Of a DNA stretch of 15,598 bases, positions 835 through 15,598 are shown piece after piece. Below the pieces are notes generated by a model. It saw nothing but the letters and a program-made list of their open reading frames with translations. It was not told the origin of the DNA and made no database searches. This stretch comes from Microcystaceae cyanobacterium (lineage in GTDB: Bacteria; Cyanobacteriota; Cyanobacteriia; Cyanobacteriales; Microcystaceae), in the NCBI GenBank assembly GCA_041746575.1, contig JBGTGT010000104.1, forward strand, positions 1 through 15,598, written 5' to 3'. A program made the position numbers and the translations under genes. Within the stretch, counting starts at the first letter, position 1. Every line of letters starts with the position of its first letter.

Positions 835-1095
835 TTAAGCCACCTCAAGTTCATAATGTAAAACCAATAACTCATCTTCCTTTAAAATTGCCATCGCATA
901 TTCCCGTCCTTGACTATCAGCAAACTCTACTAAATATTGCTTTTCTTCTCCTCTTTCATAAACTTCTACCACCGTTCCCACCTGTCCACTCGGTAAGCTT
1001 TCAATAGACATAAATTCAGGTTCAACTAAAGTTAATCTTTCCTTAGCAATTGGATTAATAATCGCCACTGTATCTAACATTAAAATATTGTTCAT
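835..1095 (-). CDS. DUF4926-like small protein
   Basis: Motif LDTVA...GQVGTVVEVY...YLVEFADSQGREYAM...L, immediately downstream of the DUF6883-like gene. Confidence 0.75.
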   Translation of the reverse strand: MNNILMLDTVAIINPIAKERLTLVEPEFMSIESLPSGQVGTVVEVYERGEEKQYLVEFADSQGREYAMAILKEDELLVLHYELEVA

Positions 1096-1100
1096 GATAC

Positions 1101-1430
1101 CTACTTAATAAACGCAGAAATAAGACGAGGATTCGCATTTGTAGAAGTGACTTCCCAAATCGTCCGAAGTTGCATCCTTTCTTGATTCGGTATCGTCCAA
1201 TCTACCTTAAACTGTTGACCAAAATCTGTCTGTGCTTGCTGAACCACTTCCCCTTCAATGGCCGCTAGACGAATCATTGACAATAACAGTTCAGCATTTT
1301 CTTGAGTGATACCTAAACGAGCTTTAAAAACCCTAGCCTTATGTTTACCGCTAGAATGTTCAGGATTTAAGCAATAGTTAATTAACTTTTCCATTGCAAT
1401 CTCCGCTTGTTCCCCGTTAGGTAATTTCAT
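1101..1430 (-). CDS. DUF6883-like protein (putative toxin/nuclease partner of DUF4926)
   Basis: Motif MKLPN..A.I...KL..YCLNPEH..GKHKARVF...LG...W......PRLISAF. Confidence 0.72.
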   Translation of the reverse strand: MKLPNGEQAEIAMEKLINYCLNPEHSSGKHKARVFKARLGITQENAELLLSMIRLAAIEGEVVQQAQTDFGQQFKVDWTIPNQERMQLRTIWEVTSTNANPRLISAFIK

Positions 1431-1549: not shown

Positions 1550-2263
1550 ATGCTTGCCAGCAACTCCCCCCTTCCCAACCCCTACATTGACCTAAAATTC
1601 CCCCTCACAGGTCACATCATACCCTTAAATCACGGCTATCCCCTCTATTCAGCTATATCTCACCAATTCCCCGTCATTCATAACCTAGACACCCTCAGCA
1701 TTCATCCCATCACAGGTAAACCCGAATTTCCCCACCTTCTCTACCTTACCGAAGACTCTTACCTCTGTCTGCGTCTTCCTATTAATCAAGTCCCTCTAAT
1801 CTACCGACTCGCAGGAAAAACCCTCAACCTCAATGACCATAAAATTCGCCTTGGATTACCAGAATCCACTTTTATCTCCCCTCATCATCACCTCTATTCT
1901 CGTCTTGTCGTTATTCGAGGATTTGATGAACCTCAAACCTTCCTTGAAGCAGCACAACGCCAACTAAACCAGCGTAACATAACCGCTACCTTATCCCTCA
2001 CGTCCCGACCCGAAGGTGAACCCATTCGACGTATAATCAAGATTAAAGGCAAAACCCTTGTCGGTTTCGGAGTCAAAATCAGCGATTTGAACGAAGAAGA
2101 CTCAATTTCACTACAAGAACAGGGAATTGGGGGAAAACACAAGATGGGATGCGGAGTGTTTATTAAGGCAGAGGGCAGAAGGCAGGAGGCAGGAGGAAAT
2201 AAAAGGGAGAAGGAAGGGATTAGGATTCAGAAATCAGAGAATAGAAGGCGAGAGGAAAGTTAA
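1550..2263 (+). CDS. cas6: Type I-B (Myxan) CRISPR endoribonuclease Cas6 (Cmx6), with a repeat-derived C-terminal tail
   Basis: N-terminal IDLKFPLTG..IPLNHGYPLYSAIS and the C-terminal glycine-rich loop LQEQGIGGKHKMGCGVF. Confidence 0.95.
   Translation: MLASNSPLPNPYIDLKFPLTGHIIPLNHGYPLYSAISHQFPVIHNLDTLSIHPITGKPEFPHLLYLTEDSYLCLRLPINQVPLIYRLAGKTLNLNDHKIRLGLPESTFISPHHHLYSRLVVIRGFDEPQTFLEAAQRQLNQRNITATLSLTSRPEGEPIRRIIKIKGKTLVGFGVKISDLNEEDSISLQEQGIGGKHKMGCGVFIKAEGRRQEAGGNKREKEGIRIQKSENRRREES
2166..2195 (+). repeat. Tandem heptamer (GGCAGRR) tract; left arm of a 30-bp inverted repeat
   Basis: AGGCAGAGGGCAGAAGGCAGGAGGCAGGAG matches the reverse complement of 2731-2760 at 27/30 positions. Confidence 0.9.
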
Positions 2264-2314
2264 AAAGGATATAATAAGCTTTAACGTCAAACTTCTGCCT
2301 TCAAACTTCTATCT

Positions 2315-2665
2315 ATGAGCTATAGAGAACAATTCATTTGGAAACGTGGAATTCAACTATCCGTAAACTGTTATCAATTAACTGAAAAATTCCCTAAGTC
2401 AGAATTATATGGACTTACAAGCCAAATAAGACGAGCTTCTGTCTCTGTTCCCTCTAATATTGCTGAAGGTTATGGCAGAAGAACCAAGAACGAGTATATT
2501 CAGTTCCTTCATATTGCATTGGGGTCTTTAAGAGAACTAGATACACAGCTAATCATAGCTAAAGAAGTAAAATTAGCTACTCCTGAATTATTTGACCCAA
2601 TTTTAGAAGAAGTAGATAGTATGCAAAGAATTTTAGTTTCTACTATTCAAAAGCTAAAGCCTTAA
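2315..2665 (+). CDS. Four-helix-bundle protein (23S rRNA IVP / bAvd-like superfamily)
   Basis: Signature W......L...Y.LT..FP..E.YGLTSQIRRASVSVPSNIAEG.GR....Y..FL.IA.GSL.EL.TQL.IA. Confidence 0.93.
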   Translation: MSYREQFIWKRGIQLSVNCYQLTEKFPKSELYGLTSQIRRASVSVPSNIAEGYGRRTKNEYIQFLHIALGSLRELDTQLIIAKEVKLATPELFDPILEEVDSMQRILVSTIQKLKP

Positions 2666-2691
2666 ATTTCCCCCCTACCCTTTTACCCTCC

Positions 2692-2795
2692 TAAGCTAAG
2701 ACGCATTTAAACTGGGTAGCGCGTAAATAGCTCCTGCCTCCTGCCCTCTGCCTCCTGCCTGTCCCCACAAACCAATTTAGATGCTTAACAGCTTA
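2692..2795. mobile_element. 104-bp MITE-like element with 24-bp imperfect terminal inverted repeats
   Basis: 2692-2715 TAAGCTAAGACGCATTTAAACTGG versus the reverse complement of 2772-2795, TAAGCTGTTAAGCATCTAAATTGG (18/24 identical). Confidence 0.55.
2731..2760 (-). repeat. Tandem heptamer tract; right arm of the 30-bp inverted repeat
   Basis: CTCCTGCCTCCTGCCCTCTGCCTCCTGCCT. Confidence 0.9.
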
Positions 2796-2831
2796 CTCTT
2801 CTGCCATCTGTTTCCTGCCCCCTGCCCCCAA

Positions 2832-4553
2832 ATGATAGCCACTTCAACCCCCCCCAAAATCCATCTGCACCTCAACGCACCTGACACCACCCTCATTCAT
2901 CGTGCAGGGATATTAGGGTTATGGATGACCCTTAAACAGCTAGAACAGCAATTTCCTACTCCTTTCCAACGTTTAGGCGGATTATCATGGAAATTAACCC
3001 CTGATAGTGTTAGTCTTGATTGGCAAGGACAAGATGAGGAAGTCTTAGATTGGCTACTTAAACAAGCGTTTCAAGTTGATGCGAAAGGCTTAATCAGCTT
3101 ACTAGGACTAAAACCTCAATTTATGCCTTTAATTAATAAAATACACCTACATCAAGCCTTAACCGCCACCTTACTACAACATAATCAATTTGTAACTCCC
3201 ATTACTCGCCAATACCAAGTCTATGGAATTAATTTAAAGAAAACTGCTCCTAATTATCTCTTAAATTTACTCATCAAAAGCCCTATTCCCCTACAATTTT
3301 ATCTATTAGCTAAAGGAAAATTAGATGCCATTAAATCTATCAACCTGACAGAAGATAAAGTTAACTGTCGCCTCAGCTATAAACGACTAGCAGACTATAT
3401 TCATCAAGACTTTAGCCAACAATTATGTCATCCTAAAACCCATCAATTAATCAAAGATTATATCCCGATTGTTAGTTGGTTGTATCCGGGGGCTATCATT
3501 CGACATGAATTAGTCAGAAAATTTAATCAATGTAAAGAACGTCCCGAATATGCTTTTGCCCTATTATTTTTACCAATAGCTTGTCACTATTTAATTTTAT
3601 CTAAAGGAATCAATGAACAACTAAAATCGAAGAAAAACCATCCTATTAAATACTTATTGGTCATTCCAGACTCTATTAACTTAGAAAAATCAGCCAAAAT
3701 ACGCTGGCGTTTAAATAATACTCATTATCGAGAGTTGTATGTTTCTAGTTTAGCCGAAGCTGGTTTAAATTATTATGTTAATGAAAATCAGCGTCACTTT
3801 TCCCCTCAAAGATGTCAAGTTATTCTCTATGATAAATTAATGAAAACCTCTCAACTCAGAAATCCTGTTGATATTCAAGACTTTTATATCACACCCAAAA
3901 ATCTGAAAACCTATCAACTTGCTCACCGTCATCTTCAACACAATCAACTTATACCAACTGAAGTAAACTTTCTCATTAGATTAAACTTAATTAGGGGAAT
4001 AATAGCTGAAAATATTCTTAAAAAACAATCGATTTGGCGAAATTTATGGTTAATCTTAAAACAAAAAGACCCCTCTGGTGAAATTAGACAGCAACTCAAT
4101 TACAATCAAACAGGATTATTCACCATGATAAAAAATGTTGATGAAATTACCAAATCTCATGATGCTTTTATTGACGTTATTCACGAAGCATTGAAAATGA
4201 TTTACGCTCAAATGTATCAAGATAATCCCGATTCAGCACCGAAAAAGATTGACAGAGAAAATGAACGCCTTAAATCTAAACTTTTAGATTGCTATAAAGA
4301 GGAAACCTTTCGACATCTCATGGCTAAATTACTCTCAAAAGCAGGGAATCTTTCAACCCTTAACGAAAACCGTAAATTAGTCTTACCAATTTTAACAGGT
4401 AAAATAGACTGGAAAGAAGCCAGAGATATTGCTTTAATTGCCTTATCCAGCTATCCCACCAAAGCAAGATTAAGTAGGCAAACTTTAGTCTTTTTTGCTT
4501 TTCCGCTACTCCTTGAGGTAGAACTTTATCAACTCGCTTTTGTTATTTTATAG
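2832..4553 (+). CDS. cas8: Type I-B (Myxan) Cascade large subunit Cas8 (Cas8b3/Cmx8); likely start 2832 rather than 2781
   Basis: N-terminal L.L.APDTTLIHRAGILGLWMTLKQL, WLYPGAIIRH, FALLFLPIAC.Y...L.VIPD, and position between cas6 and cas7. The ATG at 2781 lies inside a repeat. Confidence 0.9.
   Translation: MIATSTPPKIHLHLNAPDTTLIHRAGILGLWMTLKQLEQQFPTPFQRLGGLSWKLTPDSVSLDWQGQDEEVLDWLLKQAFQVDAKGLISLLGLKPQFMPLINKIHLHQALTATLLQHNQFVTPITRQYQVYGINLKKTAPNYLLNLLIKSPIPLQFYLLAKGKLDAIKSINLTEDKVNCRLSYKRLADYIHQDFSQQLCHPKTHQLIKDYIPIVSWLYPGAIIRHELVRKFNQCKERPEYAFALLFLPIACHYLILSKGINEQLKSKKNHPIKYLLVIPDSINLEKSAKIRWRLNNTHYRELYVSSLAEAGLNYYVNENQRHFSPQRCQVILYDKLMKTSQLRNPVDIQDFYITPKNLKTYQLAHRHLQHNQLIPTEVNFLIRLNLIRGIIAENILKKQSIWRNLWLILKQKDPSGEIRQQLNYNQTGLFTMIKNVDEITKSHDAFIDVIHEALKMIYAQMYQDNPDSAPKKIDRENERLKSKLLDCYKEETFRHLMAKLLSKAGNLSTLNENRKLVLPILTGKIDWKEARDIALIALSSYPTKARLSRQTLVFFAFPLLLEVELYQLAFVIL
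4125..4553 (+). CDS. cas11: Putative Cas11 small subunit translated internally within cas8
   Basis: In-frame ATG at 4125 with AGGA at 4112-4115. The context caggattattcaccATG resembles the cas7 start (cggagtttatcaccATG). Helical domain with F...IHEAL...W...RDIALIAL.SY. Internal Cas11 translation is established for types I-B, I-C and I-D. Confidence 0.7.
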   Translation: MIKNVDEITKSHDAFIDVIHEALKMIYAQMYQDNPDSAPKKIDRENERLKSKLLDCYKEETFRHLMAKLLSKAGNLSTLNENRKLVLPILTGKIDWKEARDIALIALSSYPTKARLSRQTLVFFAFPLLLEVELYQLAFVIL

Positions 4554-4579
4554 CCCTTTCTTAGTCGGAGTTTATCACC

Positions 4580-5455
4580 ATGCGATACTTATTTGGAAAC
4601 TTACTCACCCATCATGCTCCTGCTTCCTTAAACCGAGGTGAAAATGACGGAAATGAACAATTAATACAACAAATTATTTGGCAAAATGAACCCCATTCAA
4701 CCGTTTCTCCCTTTAGTATTCGTTGGAAAGTTCGCTATCAATTTCAAGAACAAAAAGAAGACGTTTACGAAAAATGGGACAAAGTTCAAAGAATTCGTGT
4801 TCCACAACCCAAACCTCATAATGCAGAGGATTTTATTGATGATGATGTCATGGGATTTATGGTAACAGAATCTGCAAAAAAGAATCAAAAAGGAACAAGT
4901 AATGCTCGTCAAGGTGCATTAGGGACAAACCGAGCCATTTCTTTAACCCCCTATGATGGTGCAACCTTTAACTATTACAATAGTGGTGAAAAAGATAAGC
5001 TTTCTATTCATAGCACGAATGTTCATAATACCTGTTATCAATATTGTTTTGCTTTAGATTCAAAACATTTAGTCAATAAATCTCGTATCCTTAAGGTGAT
5101 AGATGCTTTTATTCATCTAGGTCAAGTTGGGGGTCACTACAATGATTCTTTCTTCGATTTCTCACCAGAAAGTGTTGTTTTTCGCTGGACAAAAGATAAC
5201 TGTCCTCGCTTTCTTTATTGCTTTGAACAAGATGAAAATAAGCAAATTATTGCACCCAAGTTAGAAGAACAAGTCGAAGCAGAAGATATTCTCCCTCAAG
5301 AATTATGGATTGGGGGAGAAATTACCAAAAACTTAAATATTGAAAATGCTCATCTTCATAGAGGGATTAAAAAAACGGCTGAAAACCTTAAAGCAAAAAT
5401 TGTTGAAGACTTAAAACTACCTCCTGAAGAATCCCAAAAACAAGAAAACCAATGA
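4580..5455 (+). CDS. cas7: Type I-B Cas7 (Cst2/DevR)
   Basis: LFGNLLT....SLNRGE..GN...IQ, FIDDDVMGFM, NRAISLTPY.G, YQY.F.L, VGG.....FDFSPESVVFRWT; GGAG ribosome-binding site. Confidence 0.93.
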   Translation: MRYLFGNLLTHHAPASLNRGENDGNEQLIQQIIWQNEPHSTVSPFSIRWKVRYQFQEQKEDVYEKWDKVQRIRVPQPKPHNAEDFIDDDVMGFMVTESAKKNQKGTSNARQGALGTNRAISLTPYDGATFNYYNSGEKDKLSIHSTNVHNTCYQYCFALDSKHLVNKSRILKVIDAFIHLGQVGGHYNDSFFDFSPESVVFRWTKDNCPRFLYCFEQDENKQIIAPKLEEQVEAEDILPQELWIGGEITKNLNIENAHLHRGIKKTAENLKAKIVEDLKLPPEESQKQENQ

Positions 5456-6090
5456 AATCAGTTGCTATTTATATTGATGTTCCCGTTGCTACTTTCCGAC
5501 AATCTCATGCTAGAGAGTACGGGAAAACTTATCCTTATCCTCCCCATTCAACCGTTTACGGACTTTTGTTATCTTTAGTAGGTGAAATGGACATGAACAA
5601 GCATTGTGGGGTTCAATTAGCTATTGCAATGTTATCTCAACCTGCTAAATCGAAAACATTGAGAACCATTAATCGGTTTAAGTTCAAAAAACAAGATCAT
5701 CAAGGCAATAAACGACCCGATTATCAAGAAATCTTAACCGATATTCGTTTCATTGTTTGGGTACAATCAGCAGAAGATAAACATAATCCTACCTTACCAG
5801 AAAGACTAGAACAAGCCTTATTGAATCCTGATTCTGTGCAAAGATGGGGCGTATTATTCTTAGGAGAAAGCGATGATTTAGTGAATAATATTAAGTTAGT
5901 CCCTGACAATTTTGAAGTTAAATCAAGAGAATGGCTATTAAGAGACGATAAGGGCTGGATTACTTTACCTTATTGGGTAGATCATTTTAACTTTCAAGGA
6001 ACACGATGGTTTCGCTATCGCTTAGAAGCAATTGCTTGTCAATCGCCACCAGAATCAGCTTATGTAACAATTAAACAAGACAAATATTAA
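5452..6090 (+). CDS. cas5: Type I-B (Myxan) Cas5 (Cmx5/DevS)
   Basis: VPVATFRQSHAREY..TYPYPPHSTVYGLLLSLVG, RPDYQEILT, LFLGESDDLV; ATGA overlap with cas7. Confidence 0.95.
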   Translation: MKSVAIYIDVPVATFRQSHAREYGKTYPYPPHSTVYGLLLSLVGEMDMNKHCGVQLAIAMLSQPAKSKTLRTINRFKFKKQDHQGNKRPDYQEILTDIRFIVWVQSAEDKHNPTLPERLEQALLNPDSVQRWGVLFLGESDDLVNNIKLVPDNFEVKSREWLLRDDKGWITLPYWVDHFNFQGTRWFRYRLEAIACQSPPESAYVTIKQDKY

Positions 6091-6177
6091 ACTTTTCAGT
6101 AGGTTTTTGATTAGCTTAAAGAGTTGCTTGTAGAATTATTTGTACGAATAGGCTAAAACAGTCTTTTAGCTTATGCC

Positions 6178-6436
6178 GTGATTTATTGCTTGATGTTATA
6201 AGGCGTTACTTAACCTGTCAGAGTGGCTGGTTTTGTTTCAGTGTATTGTGATTTATTGCTCGATGTCGTAAGGCGTTACTCACGTATCTAGCCAGTATGC
6301 AATCGCTAAATTCGCTTGTAATCCATTACTTGATGTTTTAAAGCGTTACTCACGTCGATTATTCAGTTTTGCCTAATCTTCTAGAACAGTGATCTATTAC
6401 TTGATCTATTACTTGATGTCGTAAGGCGTTATTCTC
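6178..6436 (+). CRISPR. Short degenerate type I-B CRISPR array, 4 repeats and 3 spacers
   Basis: Repeats: 6178-6213, 6248-6283 (GTGATTTATTGCTCGATGTCGTAAGGCGTTACTCAC), 6318-6353, and 6389-6436 (48 bp, with an internal 12-bp duplication). Spacers: 6214-6247 (34 bp), 6284-6317 (34 bp), 6354-6388 (35 bp). The GATGYCGTAAGGCGTT hairpin resembles cyanobacterial I-B repeats. Confidence 0.93.
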
Positions 6437-6638
6437 AAAGCAGAGAATTTTTGTGTAGTATTTTTTGGATTCTCGTTTTTATGTTACAACGAAGTCATAA
6501 GGGTTTGGATGCCCAAAACAAGGATATTTATTCAATGCAAGTGTAGTATATTTAGGCAATAATTAATAGCGCAAAGCATTATTTAAGCTAAAATTTTAGT
6601 AGTTCTCTCTTACTAAGACTTTACTCCTCTCTAATTTC

Positions 6639-8522
6639 ATGTTGAGCTTTTTCCCAACTCCCTACCCAGACGAGTTACTTTACAGCATATTGGCTCGTTA
6701 TCATCTGCGTAGTGGCAATAATAGCCCTAAAATCACCCTTAAAGAACTTTTTGACGACCCTAATACTATCGCAACAGTTGACCTTCCTGCTAATCTTGAC
6801 GCGCTGATTCAACAACTTTCCCTATTCTCTCACTACACCGTCGAAGATTTAATCAATAATTACACCCTTTACCCCTACTATGCCCCATTTATGACCCCTC
6901 AACGGGCAATTACCATCCAAAACTCCATGAAAGCACAATATGGAGGCAATATTCATACTCGTATTGGGATTGTCGCCAGTTCTATTCCCTTGCTTCAATA
7001 CCTTCGTTTTTGTCCAGATTGCCTTAAAGAAGACGAAAAACAGTATGGGGAAGCTTATTGGCATCGAATTCATCAAACAGCAGGGGTTTTAGTTTGTCCT
7101 CATCATGGCATTCCCCTACACGATAGCACCGTCGCTTTTCAAAGACTCAACCGCCACGAATACGAAATTGTCAGTCCTCAAAATTGCCAATTAAACACTT
7201 CGATACCTCACTATAGTTCTCAAGCCTTAAAAAGCTTCATCCAACTAGCTCAAGATATTGCTTGGTTATTGGAACATCCTCAATCTTCTCAAACCTTTGA
7301 TTATTACCGTCAACGGTACTTAAACCGTATGATTGAGCGAAAACTTGCCACAGCCTCCCATAGAGTCCATCAAAAGCCCTTAATTGATGAATTTATCTTC
7401 TTCTACGGACGAGATGTATTAGAACATCTCAACTGCATGATTGATTATAACGATTCTAGTAACTGGTTATCGAATATTGTGCGAAAAAATCGCAAAGTGT
7501 TCCATCCGATTCGTCATATCTTAATGATGCGCTTTTTATTTGGTTCTGCTAAAGCCTTTTTTAAGAATGAAGACAATTACAAACCCTTTGGTGATGCACC
7601 TTGGTTATGTTTCAACGGTGCAGTTGAGCATTATCAGCAACCTGTCGTTACTAATCTTCAAATTAGCCATTGTTTAGAGAATAAAAAGCCATTAGGGACG
7701 TTTACTTGCTCCTGTGGCATGATTTACAGTCGTACTGCTTCTGATAAAACCCCGAAAGATAATTATTCCATCGGAAGAGTGATTACTTATGGCGAAATCT
7801 GGGAAAAACGCTTACAAGAATTGGTAGAAGGTGAAAAATTAGGATTAAGAGCCACGGCTAGAGCTTTAAAGGTAGATACCCGCACAATTAACCGCTATAT
7901 TGATAAATTAGGGCTTAATGCTTCTTGGCAATCTTTACCCCCTCAACCGACACCAGCAGACACTCAACCCCCTAATAATCATAATCCTCAAGCTGAATAT
8001 CGTCAGCAATGGTTAGACCTTCAAAAAACCTATCCTGACGCAACAAAAACCACCTTTAGAAAGCAATTTCCTGCGCTTTATATATGGCTGTATCGCAATG
8101 ATAAAGACTGGTTAAATGAGCATTCACCCACCTTACAGCGTCCTGTTTCTACTAACAACCGAGTCAATTGGCAAGAACGAGATAAACAGATTAAACTGCA
8201 AGTAGAAGAAGCGGTGACTCAACTGCTCAATCTTGATATTCCCCAACGTATAACCATCGGTAAAATCGGCACAATGACGGGTTTAAAAGCCATGTTAGAG
8301 CAGAAGTTGGATAAATTACCCTTAACTCAAGCTTATCTCTTAGAAGTCACTGAATCGGTCACAAAGTTCCAAAATCGGCGAATTCAATGGGCAATTGCGG
8401 AAATTCACCGACGAGGCGAAGAAGTTAAAACATGGAAGGTGATGCGGTTAGCAGGAATGAAGGAACATGAATTTGAGAGGGTGGAAAAGATGGTTTTGAG
8501 TATGACGAAAAGTGTAGTGTAG
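6639..8522 (+). CDS. tnsD: Tn7-like target-selector protein TnsD (TniQ domain plus C-terminal DNA-binding extension)
   Basis: FFPTPYPDELLYSILARY, LRFCPDC....YGEAYWHRIHQ..GVLVCPHH zinc motifs, HPIRHIL, an HTH-like GLRATARALKVD, LY.WLYRNDKDWL, RVNW..RD. At 627 aa it is much longer than a Cascade-partner TniQ. Confidence 0.92.
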   Translation: MLSFFPTPYPDELLYSILARYHLRSGNNSPKITLKELFDDPNTIATVDLPANLDALIQQLSLFSHYTVEDLINNYTLYPYYAPFMTPQRAITIQNSMKAQYGGNIHTRIGIVASSIPLLQYLRFCPDCLKEDEKQYGEAYWHRIHQTAGVLVCPHHGIPLHDSTVAFQRLNRHEYEIVSPQNCQLNTSIPHYSSQALKSFIQLAQDIAWLLEHPQSSQTFDYYRQRYLNRMIERKLATASHRVHQKPLIDEFIFFYGRDVLEHLNCMIDYNDSSNWLSNIVRKNRKVFHPIRHILMMRFLFGSAKAFFKNEDNYKPFGDAPWLCFNGAVEHYQQPVVTNLQISHCLENKKPLGTFTCSCGMIYSRTASDKTPKDNYSIGRVITYGEIWEKRLQELVEGEKLGLRATARALKVDTRTINRYIDKLGLNASWQSLPPQPTPADTQPPNNHNPQAEYRQQWLDLQKTYPDATKTTFRKQFPALYIWLYRNDKDWLNEHSPTLQRPVSTNNRVNWQERDKQIKLQVEEAVTQLLNLDIPQRITIGKIGTMTGLKAMLEQKLDKLPLTQAYLLEVTESVTKFQNRRIQWAIAEIHRRGEEVKTWKVMRLAGMKEHEFERVEKMVLSMTKSVV

Positions 8523-8552
8523 TTTTTAAATTACAAAGTTTGATTTTCCAAT

Positions 8553-9137
8553 TCAAACAAAAGCACGAAGCGTAATTGAAATTCTTCGCCCTTTATTTTT
8601 TGAGAAGTGAGGAACTTCATGAGTCCAGTATTCATTAGTCTCATACGGCATAATAAATACCCCTCGATTTTCAGCAATAAAATCTTTATAGTTTGAACTG
8701 AGTTTGGATCTTAATCGAAAAATTCGTGTTTGACCTAAAGATATTGTGACGATAGGTGTTCCGTCAATTAATCCTATGGTACTATCTTGATGTTTACCAA
8801 TATAATGCTTTTGAGATCCTTCATACCAATTAACTAAAACACCATTAAGACGACTATCGATAGCATTCTTAGACCATTTTAAAAAAGGGGTTAATAAGGT
8901 CGGAAGAGGTAAAGCTTTATTAATATTTCCAGTATAGTAGTAATCTTTATCATAGGCTTGTTGCCAACGGGGAGTTTTTACCCATCGTCCATGTATCATA
9001 ATCGTATGAAAATCTTGAGGATGGAGTTTCCATAAATCCTCAAATAAATGATCATTTGTATAAACATCAGGAGGCAAGATGCCCGTATAAAACTTACATT
9101 GTTTGTCTAATTCATGGCAAGTAAAGTCAGCATACAT
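8553..9137 (-). CDS. AlkB-like 2-oxoglutarate/Fe(II) dioxygenase (ALKBH2/3-like)
   Basis: TPRWQQAY, LVNWY, HQD (HxD), IVTISLG..R.F, WTHEVP, RISITLR. Confidence 0.9.
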   Translation of the reverse strand: MYADFTCHELDKQCKFYTGILPPDVYTNDHLFEDLWKLHPQDFHTIMIHGRWVKTPRWQQAYDKDYYYTGNINKALPLPTLLTPFLKWSKNAIDSRLNGVLVNWYEGSQKHYIGKHQDSTIGLIDGTPIVTISLGQTRIFRLRSKLSSNYKDFIAENRGVFIMPYETNEYWTHEVPHFSKNKGRRISITLRAFV

Positions 9138-9205
9138 AAAGAGTCACGATAATTAGTAGAAATTGAGTCTCAATTTATATAAAAATAATTGTCATTTGTC
9201 AATAG

Positions 9206-12200
9206 TTAAGGAGAACCTTCTTGATTATCAGATTGTGGTTGACCACTATAATATTTATGTCGAAGGATGTTGAGTTCGGGAAAATCAAATATATCAGATG
9301 GACTTCCTTTTAAAGCAAGATTACGAGCATCCTTAAGCATAGGATCATTTACGTCTTCAGTACAATCTTGTACTATATTACTACCAAATAAACCTAAGAT
9401 TAAAATATAATTTTTTACTAATTGATTAGGATAATCTAACTCTGAATTAAGAGCTTTTTTGACAGATTGTAAATGAGAGTCTTGTTTAAATGAACTATAT
9501 TTATGTCCTAAATATAGCCAAGTTTCAGTTGCCATAAGCTTCTCTACTATACTAGACGATTCTAACGTAGAGAATTCAACAATTATTTCCCATTCTTGAC
9601 CATCAATATTGGGTAAGAAGCGCATCGCTCTTAAGGTAATTGCTTTTAGATATTCAGAAGATAATTCACGATTTGTGTAATTTAATAAAGTTCTAATCTG
9701 AGGGCAGAATCCCTGTCGAGCCAAGCTTTCTAGTATATGAATAGGATCTCGAATAATCCAGAATTTTTCACCGCATAAGATTTCCATTAAAGGTGTAACT
9801 ATCTCCTCAAATCCTAAGATCGAAAGTCTAAATAATGTAAAACGAATATATCTTTGAAATTTTCTTTGTTCGTTCAGTTGGTCATTATTCAATTCACATA
9901 GCTTTTGCCAGCTATCACAAAATAATTCCACTAATTCGTTTCGCAATTGTTTGCGTTTTTCATCCAAAATGTTATTTGAAGACTTAAAAATAGCTGCCCA
10001 AATCATAGTTTCAGAATATGAATTATCATTAGGAGGTAATGAATTTTTTATTTCTCCTTCCAAGTCCAAAATATCTAATTGTTGTTTTAAATCTTTCTCT
10101 CTTCTTTTTTCATTGAATAAATATTTATATATCCTTCTACTAAGTTCAGTCGGCTGAATATAAATATGAATAGCTCGAAGACACTGCTGATATTGCTCTA
10201 TATTATGCCACCACCGTTCATCATCATCATAAGATTTTTCTAATAAACTACGATGCTCTGGATTCAAAATATACAGATAATTTATGATACACTCAAAGTC
10301 TTCTTTTAATCTATCTAAACACTGATCTTCTTGTTGTAAAAATTCATCGCGGCTTAATTTCTCTGTTTTATTTCGATTCAGATTTAGCTCTAGCTTATCC
10401 AATTCTTCAACTAAAATCTTTTCTACCTCATCCACATCTTCTGGATCTGGAACAATAAAAATCATATCATCTACATAGCGATGAAGTTCAGCTTTTGGTT
10501 CTCTATTTAGTCCAAATCTAGTGTCTATTGCAGTGAGGTATATATTCTGGTAAAAACCAGAGCCAATACTTCCTTGAGTTATTCCTTTCCCTACTTCATG
10601 TTCATCAATATTTTTAGAAAGTAATAAGCGAATTAGCCAGCGTATGCGCTCACTCTCTGTTCTAAACTCATGACAAAGTTCATCGTATAATTGAGATTGA
10701 ATTATTTTTGTGTAAAATGACTCAATATCAACTCGCAGAATACCACAATTAGGATATTTTTTGGCACTATCCTTTGCTTGTGTCATATAAGCTTGATAAG
10801 CATCAAACCAATACCCATAAAAATATTCTGTCTGTCTTCCTCTATAATCTCCTGCAATTTTATAAGCATAACTATTACCTCGTAACTTAGATGCTTTGTC
10901 TCCTAATTGTTGAATAATTGCCACAGAAAGGATTTCTTCTTCAATGCGAGAAAGCCCTTTAGGGCGAGTATCATTGATATTCTTAGGAACTTTATAATGA
11001 ATGCTTTCATCTGTTAAGGCAACCTCACGAGCATAAGCACACAATTTTTCTCTTAAATCACCAAGTCTAGCCTCAAGATTCATTTCAAATAGACGCATTT
11101 CCGTTTCATCATACAAGGTTTCTCGTAAAAGATTATGACGCGCTCTCGCCCATGCTAATCTAAGATTATCTAGACTGATAACATCATTCCAATGAGAATC
11201 TCCTTCTAAATCAGCACTCCAAATTGTCTGCAAGTCTGCATAGAACTCCACAGGATTACCTATTTTTGCTCTCCCTTTATCTTTCCAGTAACTACCTTCA
11301 GGATTTTCAAAATAAATCTTATGGTAATCTGAGTGATTCTGATTAATTTTATGCTTATTTCCTAAAATGAGTTGTAAAGTATGTGCCATTTCTTGAATTC
11401 TTTGACTGAGAGGAACTTCACTATTTGTACCGATTTGAACCTGATTTTCCATATTTTTAGTACCAATCGTTAAGATGTGCATTACATCTATGGGAACATC
11501 TTCTATCAATTGTCTATAGGATTGGGCTTCAGCAGTACCAAGTCGTATGCCATTTTCTTCAACAGATTCATCAATATTAATATCTAAACTTTTTAACTCA
11601 TCTATTTTTGCTTTCTCGTTTCTATAATTTTGACTAAAGGGAGAAATCACATTAAGTTGCATCACTAAAGTGTTTGTAAAGCATGGTAGCTGAGAAGATG
11701 CACGTTCTTTGTCAAGCAACTGACGTATCTCAATTGAAGCATTTGGAAATCCCTTAATGACTGATTTATAATCTAGATTGACTAGATCATTGGTCAATAA
11801 TTTTAGATGTTCCATCATTTTATGATAGAGTGCAATAGCTCGATGACTTGGATCTACACCGATGAAAAAAAGATTTATATCTTTGGTCAATTTTCCACTT
11901 TCTTTTAAATACAGAACCGCTTCTAAAAAAGCAGCAGAACCAGCACCAGCACCACAACCTATGTCCAATACGCAGATTTTCTGATTATGTCTTAACCAAT
12001 TGATCAGTTTTTCTTTTGTTATGATATATTCTAGAGAATGCGCTGCTTTAAAATAATGACTAGGAAAAAGATTATAATATTGAAACGCAATATGTTTTAA
12101 GTCTTCTTGTTGTAAGATTTCCTTCCATTTGCCTCGTGGATCTATTGTCTTATATCCTTTAGCCTGTTCAAGATTATCAAGCCACTGATGTACCGCAGTA

Positions 12201-12256
12201 TAAGCTTCTGCGATAATGGGATGAAAAGTGCGATGGGTGTTTGAATTACTGTTCAT
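9206..12256 (-). CDS. Fusion of a class I SAM-dependent methyltransferase, a reverse transcriptase and a C-terminal alpha-helical (HEAT-like) region (UG/Abi, DRT-like)
   Basis: VLDIGCGAGAG (DIGCGAG at 11945-11965) and FIGVDPS. RT motifs: NLRLAW, VPK...TRP, SYAY, VDIESFYTKI, GITQGSIGSGFYQNIYL, RYVDD (YVDD at 10466-10477), LNLNRNKT. Followed by about 380 aa of Leu/Glu-rich sequence, probably helical. Confidence 0.9.
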   Translation of the reverse strand: MNSNSNTHRTFHPIIAEAYTAVHQWLDNLEQAKGYKTIDPRGKWKEILQQEDLKHIAFQYYNLFPSHYFKAAHSLEYIITKEKLINWLRHNQKICVLDIGCGAGAGSAAFLEAVLYLKESGKLTKDINLFFIGVDPSHRAIALYHKMMEHLKLLTNDLVNLDYKSVIKGFPNASIEIRQLLDKERASSQLPCFTNTLVMQLNVISPFSQNYRNEKAKIDELKSLDINIDESVEENGIRLGTAEAQSYRQLIEDVPIDVMHILTIGTKNMENQVQIGTNSEVPLSQRIQEMAHTLQLILGNKHKINQNHSDYHKIYFENPEGSYWKDKGRAKIGNPVEFYADLQTIWSADLEGDSHWNDVISLDNLRLAWARARHNLLRETLYDETEMRLFEMNLEARLGDLREKLCAYAREVALTDESIHYKVPKNINDTRPKGLSRIEEEILSVAIIQQLGDKASKLRGNSYAYKIAGDYRGRQTEYFYGYWFDAYQAYMTQAKDSAKKYPNCGILRVDIESFYTKIIQSQLYDELCHEFRTESERIRWLIRLLLSKNIDEHEVGKGITQGSIGSGFYQNIYLTAIDTRFGLNREPKAELHRYVDDMIFIVPDPEDVDEVEKILVEELDKLELNLNRNKTEKLSRDEFLQQEDQCLDRLKEDFECIINYLYILNPEHRSLLEKSYDDDERWWHNIEQYQQCLRAIHIYIQPTELSRRIYKYLFNEKRREKDLKQQLDILDLEGEIKNSLPPNDNSYSETMIWAAIFKSSNNILDEKRKQLRNELVELFCDSWQKLCELNNDQLNEQRKFQRYIRFTLFRLSILGFEEIVTPLMEILCGEKFWIIRDPIHILESLARQGFCPQIRTLLNYTNRELSSEYLKAITLRAMRFLPNIDGQEWEIIVEFSTLESSSIVEKLMATETWLYLGHKYSSFKQDSHLQSVKKALNSELDYPNQLVKNYILILGLFGSNIVQDCTEDVNDPMLKDARNLALKGSPSDIFDFPELNILRHKYYSGQPQSDNQEGSP

Positions 12257-14705
12257 AGATGTACTCTTTAGGAATTAAGTTAATAAAAGGACTGGGAGAT
12301 TTAGAATAACCTTTAGAATCTTTGGCAAAAGAAGAAATAAATAACTTTTTCTTAGCTCTTGTCATTGCTACATAAAATAATCTTTTTTCCTCTTCTAATT
12401 TGTCATCACGAATGCTAAAAAAGCTTGGAAATTCATCTTCTGTCGCACCTGCAATAAAAACAATGTCAAATTCTAAACCTTTCGATTGATGCACAGTAAT
12501 AATAGGTATTTGATTGTTATTTTTGGAAATTTGATCTAAATTTTTAGCAAGTGCTGTGTGTTCTAAGAGAGTTCGTAAAGCCGTGTCAGGATGTAAGTCA
12601 TTATCATCAAGTTCTTGAAAAATGTTGACCAAAAATAATAAATTTTGTGAGCGTTTAGTGTCCGATTGATAATAACTATAAAGCTGAGATTCTATCAAGA
12701 CTTTGTTTAATAATTCTGGTGGTCTTAAATTTTGACTTGAATCACGCCAATCATTTACCTGTTTAGCTAGTTCTTTAAATTCTTCTTGATATTGAATTCC
12801 TAAATTTTTACGAGCATCTGAATTTGCTTGAATGAGTGGAATTAATACGGCTAATAAATCAATAGTCGTTCTGACATCATCCATTCCCTTATGAGTGGGA
12901 AGATGTTTAAGATTAAGATGTTTAGCTAAAGACTCTAAAGTGTAACGTTCTGCTGTAATAAAACGTCTCGATAAATCTAAAGTGTCTTCCCAAGGTAATT
13001 TTGGAACACTTAAACCAGCTTTTTGTGCTTGAGCCGTTATCATCTTAATATCAAAGATTATATTGTGTCCAACTAGCATTGAATCTTTTATAAAATCAAA
13101 AAATTTATTGAAAGCATTTTGAGGTGATTCTCCATATTTTTCAAGAAATAGATCACTATATCCGTGAATTAACTCTGAGTCACCGACACTAACTGTATTA
13201 ACAATATAAGTATGAAATCTATCTTTAGGTAATCCATTGATTAGACGAATAGCTGCAATTTCTATTACTTCATCCTGACTAATTGAAAATCCTGTTGTTT
13301 CAACATCAAAGACAACAATTGAACCTGACGTATAGGCTTTTATTAATTCTCCAAAAGGATCTCCCTGAATGAAGGTTTTACTTGATACCATATCCGTTAA
13401 GCTCAAACCACATATTTCTCCCTTTTTCATCAAATTTTTAATGGTTTTGTCACCAATTTCTCGCTTGGGGCGTAGTAACATTCTACGCATTGCACTCGTA
13501 TCGAAAGGATTTATAATCAAACGCAAATAGGCTAAAGCATCTTTGACCTCTTGGTGCATAAAAAACTGAAATTGTTCAATTGTTAAACAAGGAATATTCA
13601 TTTTTTCTAACATTCGACTAACAATTTCTGTTCGCTTATGACTTCGGGAAAGAACTGCGACTTTGCTGTAGTCAATATTCGTCTGTGTTTTTGCTAAATC
13701 TTGTACTTTGTGGCTAATCCATTCTGCTTCTGATTCTTCGTTTTTTGCTCTATAAACTTGAATAGATTCTCCCTGTTTGCAGTTAGGAGAAGGGCTAATT
13801 TGAGTTTGTCGAGTTTCAAAAGAGTCTGCAAAAGCTGAAGCCGCTTTTAGCAATGTTTTTGTCGCTCGATAGTTCCAAGTTAAAAGATACTTGGTAGGAT
13901 GGAAATTATCATTAAATTGTGAAATAACTTCGTAAGGTTCAGAACCTCGCCATTCATATATGGTTTGATCTAAGTCTCCTATCATAGTTAAATTACCACT
14001 TCGCTTTGCCAAGTGATTCACAACTTGATATTCAGAAAGATGAGTATCTTGAACTTCATCAACCTGAATAAAATCAAATTTTTCTGACCAGCGTTGATTG
14101 ATGTCTTTTTCTTGAGATAACATGGCTCTGACATAAAACAGCAAATCCGCAAAGTCTAAAGCATGACGTTTTTGCAGTATCGTTTGATATTGACTAGCAC
14201 AATCAGCAAATTTATTTCCTCGTAATAAATACAGTTCGTTTAATGAAATATTCAAAGACAATTGATGATTTTTCGCTTGATTTTTGCAAGTAGTTATTTT
14301 AAAGAAAACGCTTTGTGCTTCCCGATGATCTGATAAACTAAAAACTTCTTTAACTAATTCAATACAGTCAGCGTCATCATAAACGACAAAATCCGATGGT
14401 AAACCAATCTCACGAGCTTCTGTCCTCAGCATAGATGAGCATAAGCCATGAAAGGTTTTTATAGTTAACTCGGATAAGTGCTGTGGACAATACCTAGCTA
14501 ATCTTTCGCTCATTTCCTTGGTGGCTCGATTAGTAAAAGTTAGGCATAGTATTTTATTGGGTGAAATGCCTTTATTTATAGCGTGTACGACTCGCTCAGT
14601 TAAAACACGAGTTTTCCCTGTACCAACTGGCGCAAGCACCAAAACAGCACCTTGAATGTGATTGATAATAGCTCTTTGTTCAGCGTTTAGCTCATTTGGA
14701 GACAC
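12246..14705 (-). CDS. UvrD/PcrA-like SF1 helicase with an inserted DnaQ-like DEDDh 3'-5' exonuclease domain (GTG start)
   Basis: Helicase motifs: APVGTGKT, LTFTNRA, TFHG, VDEVQD, GDLDQTIYEWRG, NYR, TVHQSKGLEF, EEKRLFYVAMTRAK. Exonuclease motifs: FDVETTG, GHNIIFD, HKGMDD. Confidence 0.93.
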   Translation of the reverse strand: MSPNELNAEQRAIINHIQGAVLVLAPVGTGKTRVLTERVVHAINKGISPNKILCLTFTNRATKEMSERLARYCPQHLSELTIKTFHGLCSSMLRTEAREIGLPSDFVVYDDADCIELVKEVFSLSDHREAQSVFFKITTCKNQAKNHQLSLNISLNELYLLRGNKFADCASQYQTILQKRHALDFADLLFYVRAMLSQEKDINQRWSEKFDFIQVDEVQDTHLSEYQVVNHLAKRSGNLTMIGDLDQTIYEWRGSEPYEVISQFNDNFHPTKYLLTWNYRATKTLLKAASAFADSFETRQTQISPSPNCKQGESIQVYRAKNEESEAEWISHKVQDLAKTQTNIDYSKVAVLSRSHKRTEIVSRMLEKMNIPCLTIEQFQFFMHQEVKDALAYLRLIINPFDTSAMRRMLLRPKREIGDKTIKNLMKKGEICGLSLTDMVSSKTFIQGDPFGELIKAYTSGSIVVFDVETTGFSISQDEVIEIAAIRLINGLPKDRFHTYIVNTVSVGDSELIHGYSDLFLEKYGESPQNAFNKFFDFIKDSMLVGHNIIFDIKMITAQAQKAGLSVPKLPWEDTLDLSRRFITAERYTLESLAKHLNLKHLPTHKGMDDVRTTIDLLAVLIPLIQANSDARKNLGIQYQEEFKELAKQVNDWRDSSQNLRPPELLNKVLIESQLYSYYQSDTKRSQNLLFLVNIFQELDDNDLHPDTALRTLLEHTALAKNLDQISKNNNQIPIITVHQSKGLEFDIVFIAGATEDEFPSFFSIRDDKLEEEKRLFYVAMTRAKKKLFISSFAKDSKGYSKSPSPFINLIPKEYIYEQ

Positions 14706-14964
14706 AAAGACTTCTCTCTTTATTCGATACTTAATCCTAAAATTCCCCTATTTCAGAAAATATTTTATAGGTGTAATAAATCTTCATAATCTGCTGGCTG
14801 TCTTGTTAGGATCAACGAAGGGTAAAGAGTAACAAGCTTCCTCACACCTCTTTCATTAGTTCATGCGTTTTTATTCCCTACTCCTACAAGCCTTGATAGA
14901 GATGGCGATCACTTTATCAGATAGTTTATCTGATCCTTATATGTAGATTAGCCTTTTCTGTTTT

Positions 14965-15127
14965 TAGAAATTTACCAACTTTATTATCTAATAAAAGTGA
15001 GTTTAACAACTGCCAAAGAATTGACTAGCTATAATTTACCAACTTTATTTTTTGCAGTTCTCTTTTACCCAACGAGAGATTAAGCATTAGATTCATAGAA
15101 ATTTACCAACTTCATTATGTATCTACA
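14965..15127 (-). repeat. Tn7-like transposon end (left-end architecture) with three spaced TnsB-binding sites
   Basis: AATTTACCAACTTYATT at 14969-14985, 15033-15049 and 15100-15116. The minus strand reads TGTAGATA-CATAATGAAGTTGGTAAATT, i.e. a TGT-starting 8-bp terminus followed by a site resembling Tn7's GACAATAAAGTC. Candidate 5-bp target-site duplication ATATC at 15128-15132. Confidence 0.85.
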
Positions 15128-15462
15128 ATATCGATATTGTGAAAGAAAACTAAAACGGTCGCAAAGACTTGTTTCTCGTAAAATCAAAGGTTCTGGTAAC
15201 AGGAGTAAATCTAGAGTTAAATTAGGTAAAGTTCACCTCAAAATAAGTAGGCAGCGTAAAGACCATGCTGTGAAGTTAGCGCGGTGCGTAATCACATCTA
15301 ACGATGTAGTAGTCTATGAAGATTTGAGGATTAAGAACTTAGTGAAAAACCACTGTCTTGCTAAGTCAATTAACGATGCTGGATGGTATCAATTTAGAGT
15401 TTGGTTGGAGTATTTTGGTAAAGTATTTGGGCGATTGACTGTTGCGGTTAATCCTGCATATA
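15128..15462 (+). pseudogene. tnpB: Internal fragment of an IS200/IS605-family tnpB
   Basis: YR..ERKLKRSQR.VSRK.KGS.NR.K.R..L.KVH.KI.RQRKD, VVVYEDL.IKNLVKNHCLAKSI.DAGW.QF...LEY, VNPAY. Lacks the N-terminus/RuvC-I and the C-terminal zinc finger/RuvC-III. Confidence 0.9.
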
Positions 15463-15598
15463 AGTAGCTAGGCAGAATTAAATAGAAAACGTTCTGTAGT
15501 ATGTTGCGATCGTTGTGCGCGAGTTTCTACACTCTCGATTACAGTGATCGCCAAATCATATTCGTCTTCAAAAATCCGACCAGCCAGTTCATGTGTTT
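15463..15598 (-). mobile_element. IS630-family element, 3' end (transposase C-terminus 15468-15598, partial)
   Basis: Minus-strand translation THELAGRIFEDEYDLAITVIESVETR...ERFLFNSA* resembles cyanobacterial IS630 transposase C-termini. The element starts right after a TA (15461-15462), where tnpB homology breaks. Confidence 0.72.

Follow-up and report, generated by a model that had tools for sequence, protein, structure and literature searches.

A UG35-type reverse transcriptase–helicase cassette with an AlkB-like gene in a cyanobacterial CRISPR-associated transposon

Results

Three adjoining genes form a 6.3-kb cassette

The stretch of DNA analyzed here (the window) has 15,598 nucleotides and is the entire contig C104 (JBGTGT010000104.1) of a cyanobacterial assembly of 4.2 Mb (GCA_041746575.1, G000). 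Its minus strand carries three genes, which encode a UvrD-type helicase with an inserted DEDDh exonuclease, a reverse transcriptase (RT) with an N-terminal methyltransferase domain and an AlkB-like dioxygenase (Table 1). A reading made from the letters and their open reading frames (ORFs), hereafter the sequence-only reading, had described three intact genes in one orientation with intact catalytic motifs, carried as cargo by a CRISPR-associated Tn7-like transposon (CAST) and forming a single defense system. The ORF coordinates are as that reading gave them, ORF positions bear out both the 11-nt overlap between helicase and RT (12246-12256) and the 68-nt gap between RT and AlkB (9138-9205), and the catalytic motifs are all invariant in family alignments of 13 helicases, 21 RTs and 12 AlkB-like proteins.

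The limits of the cassette come from two comparisons. A metagenome contig of 8785 nt from a run of another study (X6) matches the window over the whole interval given in Table 1 with 353 differences and has flanks unlike those of the window, while similarity to genome G448 (89% of nucleotides) stops at 8551, the same 3′ point as in the metagenome match; together, these endpoints define a cassette of 6.3 kb. Pieces from run X5 cover window 9472-14813. An AlkB-bearing cassette moving as a unit of 6.3 kb is reported here for the first time.

The cassette travels with its upstream region. An alignment of eleven upstream regions shows that the ~90 nt directly preceding the helicase start are conserved in L002, L018, L019, L021, L024, L026 and L028, a block that window 14706-14790 resembles only weakly, by eye. 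The block reads TTCATGAAATTTT...TTACTGAGGACATTGCCGAATG...AGCTAnGATTG...CTAAAG and possibly serves as a regulatory site. Judged by eye, its hexamers do not have the spacing of a sigma-70 promoter, and that interpretation was rejected; a sigma-70 consensus scan gave no enrichment (36 sites against 29.8 +/- 5.9 expected).

Table 1. Features of the cassette and of the surrounding transposon in the window
Feature	Position	Strand	Basis or detail
Three-gene cassette, 6.3 kb, including 132 nt upstream	8551-14837	minus	X6 contig and G448
Helicase-exonuclease gene	12246-14705	minus	819 aa, GTG start
Walker A of helicase	14610-14624	minus	residues G28-T32
DEVQD of helicase	14046-14060	minus	residues D216-D220
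DEDDh exonuclease domain inserted in helicase	12852-13316	minus	Pfam RNase_T 1.7e-27, residues 464-618
Methyltransferase-RT gene	9206-12256	minus	1016 aa
Rsm22/METTL17-like class I S-adenosylmethionine (SAM)-methyltransferase domain	11213-12256	minus	RT residues 1-348
Methyltransferase motif I LDIGCGAGA	11942-11968	minus	pattern located
RT motif A VDIESFY	10712-10732	minus	pattern located
YVDD of RT	10466-10477	minus	residues 594-597
Near-consensus promoter-like site TTGACA-17-TATAAA	9174-9202	minus	in RT-AlkB spacer 9138-9205, which holds no terminator-like site
AlkB-like gene	8553-9137	minus	194 aa
HxD of AlkB-like protein	8784-8792	minus	H116/D118
H173 of AlkB-like protein	within 8613-8624	minus	pattern located
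RxxxxxR of AlkB-like protein	8565-8585	minus	R185/R191
Upstream region travelling with cassette	14706-14837	minus	inside X6 match
tnsD/TniQ target selector	6639-8522	plus	Pfam TnsD 1.4e-118, TniQ 5.2e-31
cas6, cas8, cas7, cas5 and degenerate array	1550-6438	plus	Cas6 6.7e-68; weak DevR, Cas5d
Degenerate 4-repeat CRISPR-like array	6176-6438	plus	40-nt units, 75-80% identical, spacing 70-83 nt
Left end, Tn7-like	14969-15127	plus	17-nt TnsB-site-like repeats at 14969, 15033, 15100, then ...TCTACA

The reverse transcriptase is of the UG35 type and bears a methyltransferase-like domain

The PADLOC protein models, which in the window were scored against the three cassette genes only, assign the RT to UG35 (RT_UG35: E=0, 1235.5 bits, residues 7-1013 on profile positions 3-935 of 938), the next-best model, RT_UG25, reaching 163 bits. 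According to passages of Mestre et al. 2022 (PMC9226505), UG35 and UG25 enzymes have an N-terminal methyltransferase domain, UG35 is linked to a putative UvrD-like helicase (cluster 22) and UG25 to a DUF1848 protein. By sequence, the RT–helicase pair is an already known, catalogued candidate anti-phage system. Together with the RT-associated helicase model, RTasHel, RT_UG35 gives full-length matches to both proteins of the pair. The statement that no characterized system has this gene set needs dividing: RT and helicase are both in Mestre et al. 2022 and in PADLOC, and we found no experimental characterization of UG35, nor of anti-phage protection by it, in the published literature.

Pfam places RVT_1 at RT residues 494-635 (3.6e-13), and D510, D596 and D597 of the RT core are invariant in 21 RTs, as are D98, G100 and G104 of methyltransferase motif I. 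In an AlphaFold2 (AF2) model of residues 345-1016 (pLDDT 81), the chain consists of helices throughout between model residues ~300 and 658. By Foldseek this part resembles group II intron-like RTs, and RT plus helical C-terminus match AbiK, AbiA, DRT4, DRT6, Abi-P2 and UG15, with alignments to AbiK, AbiA, DRT4 and Abi-P2 spanning 536-709 columns (E 8e-7 to 1e-4). The modeled fold is what a Class 1 UG/Abi enzyme should show, in keeping with the UG/Abi-type RT with helical C-terminus that the sequence-only reading had named.

The methyltransferase domain is faint at the level of profiles (Pfam Methyltransf_12 at residues 97-169, 0.0079, below cut-off). The model of the N-terminal ~350 residues is confident (AF2 from 20 sequences, pLDDT 86, pTM 0.88) and its Foldseek matches are class I SAM-methyltransferases, which confirms the domain. 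VIA-align ranks the Rsm22/METTL17 mitoribosome assembly factors at the top, with Z scores of 21.2 (265 aligned, root-mean-square deviation 3.8), 19.3 and 18.6, and the next entry, at Z 14.7, opens a run of mostly small-molecule methyltransferases; no DNA methyltransferase description occurs among the 50 VIA-align matches listed. The modeled N-terminal domain resembles the rRNA-binding Rsm22/METTL17 fold rather than a DNA methylase, a likeness that is new here. Identity to this best structural match is 8-10%, the window domain differs in being fused to an RT, and a shared fold is no proof of a shared function.

A DEDDh exonuclease is inserted in the helicase, which also occurs beside other partners

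The helicase matches UvrD-helicase (1.4e-69) and UvrD_C (1.3e-102) in Pfam, with the RNase_T/DEDDh domain lying within it. RTasHel fits it at 3e-282 (936 bits), against only 312 bits for the best GajB model, and Walker A (G28-T32), DEVQD (D216-D220) and the exonuclease residues D467, E469, D552, H605 and D610 are invariant across 13 helicases. PcrA aligns with residues 5-438 and 733-814 only, with the DEDDh domain in between, in a stretch that we take to be the position of PcrA's 2B domain. If that placement holds, a DEDDh 3′-5′ exonuclease would stand in place of the regulatory 2B domain of the helicase, an arrangement that would be new here. The insert was found in all six helicases scanned with Pfam, and none of the solved structures searched has a UvrD architecture with a DEDDh insert. 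A database search with residues 430-730 returned 187 clusters at E<=1e-10; among the best 120 of the 187, every organism-bearing source name is cyanobacterial and the NCBI names read "3'-5' exonuclease" or "UvrD-helicase domain-containing protein". With 675 positions, the RTasHel profile is shorter than the window helicase (819 residues), so the exonuclease probably lies outside it. The passages of PMC9226505 that match our search terms contain neither the DEDDh insert nor AlkB, "alkb" occurs 0 times in its main text, and "exonuclease", "2OG" and "AlkB" occur 0 times in the File S1 tree of Mestre et al. 2022, although Table S2 of that work may say more on the helicase cluster.

Within the helicase gene, window 12321-12419 (minus strand) has a sub-threshold match to Rfam RF03531 ("sRNA included into helicase gene", 51.5 against 65.2 bits). 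The match falls inside the conserved C-terminal coding region and most likely reflects coding conservation.

Among 401 sampled cyanobacterial genomes, the helicase occurs in six and a helicase-type RT in two. The helicase stands beside a restriction–modification (R–M) pair in G104 and G208 and alone in G125 (49% identity), and its locus in G244 is cut by the contig end. G104 and G208 are congeners of G086; their helicases are 90% identical in DNA, their flanks are syntenic, and where the RT would be, G104 and G208 carry genes for a HindVP restriction enzyme and for a C5 methylase. A helicase that persists while the RT is swapped for a type II R–M pair is a further new observation. The site is one and the same in the three congeners (L050 4890-9478 in G104, L051 4890-9523 in G208 and L015 in G086), and the block directly upstream of the kept UvrD-DEDDh helicase is either the UG35 RT or HindVP with its C5 methylase.

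The helicase–RT pair is conserved in two gene orders

Relatives were collected as at least nine loci from species genomes, with a query that included the generic methyltransferase motif, and 24 metagenome loci, with the RT and its C-terminal part as query; neighbors were identified by tblastn with the window proteins and by Pfam scans. The RT was found in 4 of the 401 sampled cyanobacterial genomes and, within the family to which the window belongs, in 3 of 89. RT_UG35 was the best model for 15 of the 15 RTs scanned (865-1402 bits, with RT_UG25 at most 191 bits).

Twenty intact helicase-type loci have informative flanks, and in 19 of them the helicase adjoins the RT, in one of two orders. The helicase-first order, at 56-64% RT identity, is seen in 14 of the 15 intact loci for which the upstream flank is informative (window, L002, L004, L005, L018, L019 and L021-L028); at L020, the 162 nt upstream hold no helicase match. 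The RT-first order, at ~35% RT identity, has the helicase in five of five (L015, L033, L034, L038, L039). The pair is on this sequence record real and conserved, and robustly so. A divergent DUF1848 gene lies beside the RT at L001, L007, L008, L014, L029 and L036, and no partner was seen at L009, L016 (8-kb flanks) and L032 or at four short-contig loci. We considered whether the DUF1848-linked RTs are UG25 enzymes and rejected this on profile scores, the two that were scanned (L007, L014) reaching 1055-1200 bits with RT_UG35 and 161-182 bits with RT_UG25. Decayed copies include L003 (internal deletion in the helicase, RT split), L006 (RT cut by IS66), L057 in G448, and G413.

A FastTree phylogeny of 26 RTs recovers a helicase-first clade (support 0.96), an RT-first clade (1.0) and a DUF1848 clade (1.0); L003, L006, L008, L036 and G413 were left out as broken, and L021-L023, L025, L027, L028 and L033 as redundant or partial. 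Two further features of these loci are recorded here. In the RT-first loci L015, L034, L038 and L039, the RT frame runs ~130 codons upstream of the start common to the other UG35 RTs, and directly downstream of the UG35 pair in L002 (11399-15098) are AAA ATPase and subtilase (S8) genes, which may be another defense-type pair in the same island.

The AlkB-like gene belongs to one sub-clade

The AlkB-like protein matches Pfam 2OG-FeII_Oxy_2 (PF13532; 3.5e-17, 63.7 bits against a cut-off of 31.2) and shares with ALKBH2, ALKBH3 and E. coli AlkB the 2-oxoglutarate (2OG)-Fe(II) dioxygenase fold and the HxD...H and RxxxxxR motifs; N103, Y105, H116, D118, H173, R185 and R191 are invariant in 12 AlkB-like proteins. 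Its best solved relative is human ALKBH2 (7.8e-11). It differs from E. coli AlkB in falling below the equivalog cut-off (TIGR00568, 21.2 bits against 231). The family has 1117 database clusters at E<=1e-5, the closest three at 89, 87 and 75% identity and the next at <=64%.

Such a gene follows the RT in the window, in L017, in G448 (L057) and on the X6 metagenome contig. L017 has an RT of 73% and an AlkB-like protein of 75% identity to those of the window, a gap of 72 nt and a downstream flank with STAS, DUF6272, K+ channel and aspS genes; the G448 values are 85% and 87%. Window, L017 and G448 form a clade with support of 0.99, sister to the other helicase-first loci, which points to a single acquisition. 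No AlkB match was found in the eight further helicase-first loci whose sequence continues for 1 kb or more past the RT (L002, L004, L005, L018, L020, L024, L026, L027), in the 230-415 nt readable at five more, or beyond the helicase in four RT-first loci with at least 4 kb of flank. Tabulating the neighbors of RT homologs, the check that the sequence-only reading had proposed, divides its single three-gene system: the helicase–RT half holds in 19 of 20 loci, and AlkB is limited to one sub-clade. As judged from sequence, AlkB is an accessory gene of that sub-clade (RT identity at least 73%) and no core part. The AlkB family was found at E<=1e-30 in 1 of the 401 sampled cyanobacterial genomes (G000 itself), and such rarity argues that its place beside the RT is not that of a chance neighbor.

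The sequence-only reading took the three genes as one system. In its strict form, the system would be obligate, and methylation would be coupled to oxidative demethylation in a write/erase step, a view that is not without support. All three genes lie on the same strand with tight spacing, the core of the RT–AlkB spacer is conserved in an alignment of window, L017 and L057, and AlkB falls within the cassette boundaries in both comparisons (X6, G448). The identities of AlkB and RT fall together, from 87/85% in G448 to 75/73% in L017, and the AlkB family is rare in cyanobacteria (1 of 401). Against an obligate role stand its absence from 8 of 8 other helicase-first and 4 of 4 RT-first loci with the flank lengths given above, its intact frame in G448, where its partners are broken, and the promoter-like site in the spacer. 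The other 400 sampled cyanobacterial genomes, moreover, have no AlkB copy in trans at E<=1e-30, which suggests that the core works without any AlkB, and we regard the obligate three-component system as unlikely. A bolder form of it, in which the Rsm22/METTL17-like domain and AlkB would be a write/erase pair acting on structured RNA or on the RT's single-stranded DNA, methylation gating the helicase-exonuclease as a switch or timer, seems to us highly improbable; were it true, the cassette would be a reversible, methylation-gated RT immune system, and the AlkB-less relatives would be systems without the reset step.

At the other extreme, AlkB could be no more than a passenger: a gene for alkylation repair, expressed independently, that was captured beside the RT and is co-inherited only because the cassette is young. 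The single acquisition on the tree fits such a gene, as do its own near-consensus promoter-like site and its survival in the decayed G448 remnant. It is also the sole AlkB-like copy in G000 at E<=1e-5 and, as such, could serve the host directly. A passenger is harder to reconcile with L017, where the gene keeps its place and orientation at an RT identity of 73% and amid different flanking genes, and 2OG/AlkB-like domains do occur in defense contexts (PADLOC CARF_2OG match, 6.6e-12). We hold the passenger explanation to be somewhat unlikely.

The cassette is cargo of a Tn7-like element

The cassette lies between tnsD on one side and, on the other, a Tn7-like left end with three TnsB-site-like repeats spaced 64-67 nt apart, the end itself falling at 15127; this arrangement places the three genes inside the element, as the sequence-only reading had supposed in calling them CAST cargo. 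The only matches to tnsA and tnsB in G000 are on another contig, C126, whose order is glmS, an end with three contiguous 17-nt repeats, tnsA, tnsB, tnsC, a short tniQ and an integrase, followed by an Eco47II restriction enzyme with its C5 methylase, more cargo and IS66. Its end finishes ...TTTTTACA, 23 nt from the glmS stop. The window repeats match those of C126 in sequence, in inside-to-outside polarity and in number (three copies each), and the 5-bp flanks differ (ATTAT against ATATC). C104 and C126 both end in ~140-nt repeats common to other contigs, and C77 carries a further copy of cas8/cas7 (78-89% identical), so that the three contigs possibly hold two related elements or a rearrangement. 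The defense-like context that the sequence-only reading had pointed to is likewise borne out, with the Eco47II pair in the CAST and the type II R–M pair in the RT slot of the congeners.

In G448, the order beside glmS is a helicase stub, an RT pseudogene and AlkB, and then an inverted cas6 5′ end with its upstream region and a DUF6883 gene. We had considered this locus as an independent context for the cassette and rejected it, as what remains there is a degraded copy from the CAST lineage of the window.

Several smaller features accompany the element. The degenerate CRISPR-like array sits between cas5 and tnsD. Directly next to the left end is a truncated TnpB frame, and an ORF (15117-15467) begins within the transposon end. 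Between cas6 and cas8 (2315-2665) lies a gene for a four-helix protein of the 23S rRNA-intervening-sequence type (PF05635, 1.7e-37), flanked by 30-nt G+C-rich inverted repeats (2166-2195 and 2731-2760), the left of which the cas6 frame enters; one contig of run X1 has 512 other letters in place of 2167-2854, which indicates that this insert is polymorphic. A DUF4926/DUF6883 gene pair lies upstream of cas6 (835-1430, minus strand), and DUF6883 is also kept in the G448 remnant.

Discussion

The reading that we favor, and consider probable, is that the locus is a UG35 two-gene core to which one lineage added AlkB, borne by a CAST as a 6.3-kb cassette at the left end of a glmS-homing element. The core would be the methyltransferase-RT-helical protein of Class 1 UG/Abi type together with the UvrD/PcrA-type helicase and its DEDDh exonuclease, and one sub-lineage would have gained an ALKBH2/3-like dioxygenase gene behind the RT. 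The sporadic distribution, with decayed copies, is counted for a role in defense.

Upon infection, the RT may carry out unconventional DNA synthesis, protein-primed and either un-templated or small-RNA-templated, by analogy with AbiK, AbiA and DRT4. Its Rsm22/METTL17-like domain could bind or methylate structured RNA, as sensor or regulator, and the helicase-exonuclease could serve as effector or product processor that translocates, unwinds DNA and trims the 3′ strand. AlkB would be a dispensable accessory, possibly driven by its own promoter, that clears lesions of the 1-methyladenine/3-methylcytosine type from single strands exposed or methylated by the system, a step proposed by analogy with ASCC3-ALKBH3.

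Several observations weigh against the favored reading. Passages of Mestre et al. 2022 (PMC9226505) rate the defense prediction for UG35 "inconclusive". The helicase occurs without the RT in three of the five sampled genomes with readable flanks (G104, G208, G125) and may therefore work independently. Methyltransferase activity is a prediction from the modeled fold and motif I, and motif I of the RT-first clade reads GCVMGA or GCAMGA, not GCGAGA. The state of G448, where the AlkB ORF is intact although a TAG codon interrupts the RT and no more than the final 196 residues of the helicase survive, fits an RT-independent role for AlkB. Finally, a structured non-coding RNA upstream of the helicase was considered and rejected, as RNAalifold predicts 0 pairs in the conserved upstream block, which is not proof of absence, and no Rfam family is matched at gathering score; no template RNA is therefore claimed.

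The enzymatic repertoire could also be read as a DNA-damage (alkylation) tolerance or repair module, in which single strands opened by the helicase would be presented to AlkB, with resection by the exonuclease and filling-in or signaling by the RT. Activities of the UvrD/PcrA, DEDDh and AlkB kinds are all of a repair type, ALKBH3 with ASCC3 is a precedent for a helicase combined with an AlkB protein (10.1101/2020.05.22.111591), and PMC12439943 reports a part for the UG10 PrimPol-RT, of Class 1 UG/Abi, in the oxidative-damage response as well as in defense. ASCC3 is Ski2-like, the window helicase UvrD-like. Against a repair module, the genes are sporadic, mobile and prone to decay, as defense genes typically are, the RT is replaced by R–M at the same site in congeners, and most family members have no AlkB; we judge such a module quite improbable.

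Set beside known systems, the cassette is closest to the UG35 system as given in passages of PMC9226505: both proteins are full-length matches to its hidden Markov models, with an N-terminal methyltransferase, a helical C-terminus and an adjacent UvrD-like helicase, and the difference is the third, AlkB-like gene of the window sub-clade. The DUF1848-linked methylase-RTs have the same three domains at 38-42% identity to the window RT but differ in having DUF1848 as partner and no helicase; passages of Mestre et al. 2022 put the DUF1848 link in UG25. AbiK, AbiA, Abi-P2 and DRT4 share the RT core and the all-helical C-terminal domain, but are single-gene systems without methyltransferase domain or helicase partner, at 12-15% identity to the window RT; enzymes of this type make protein-primed, template-independent DNA, according to passages of PMC9508834, PMC11077055 and PMC12783706. 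Gabija GajB, like other UvrD-type defense helicases, shares the superfamily 1 UvrD fold (PADLOC GajB <=312 bits; PDB GajB 1.9e-12), whereas the window helicase scores far higher as RTasHel and has the DEDDh insert; Pfam found no GajA-comparable nuclease gene among window ORFs of at least 80 aa, though no GajA-specific search was made.

With its AlkB gene, its carriage by a CAST and its structural leads, the cassette is a variant of a known RT–helicase pair. It offers a compact, apparently intact UG35 locus with defined boundaries (8551-14837), and the leads that it provides are an exonuclease that may replace the 2B domain, a methyltransferase domain resembling an rRNA-assembly factor, the exchange of RT and R–M, and a rare AlkB recruited in one branch. 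Should AlkB not act with the system, the locus would be one more member of a catalogued family riding a CRISPR-associated transposon; should it do so, RT-based defense would have its first demonstrated oxidative demethylase.

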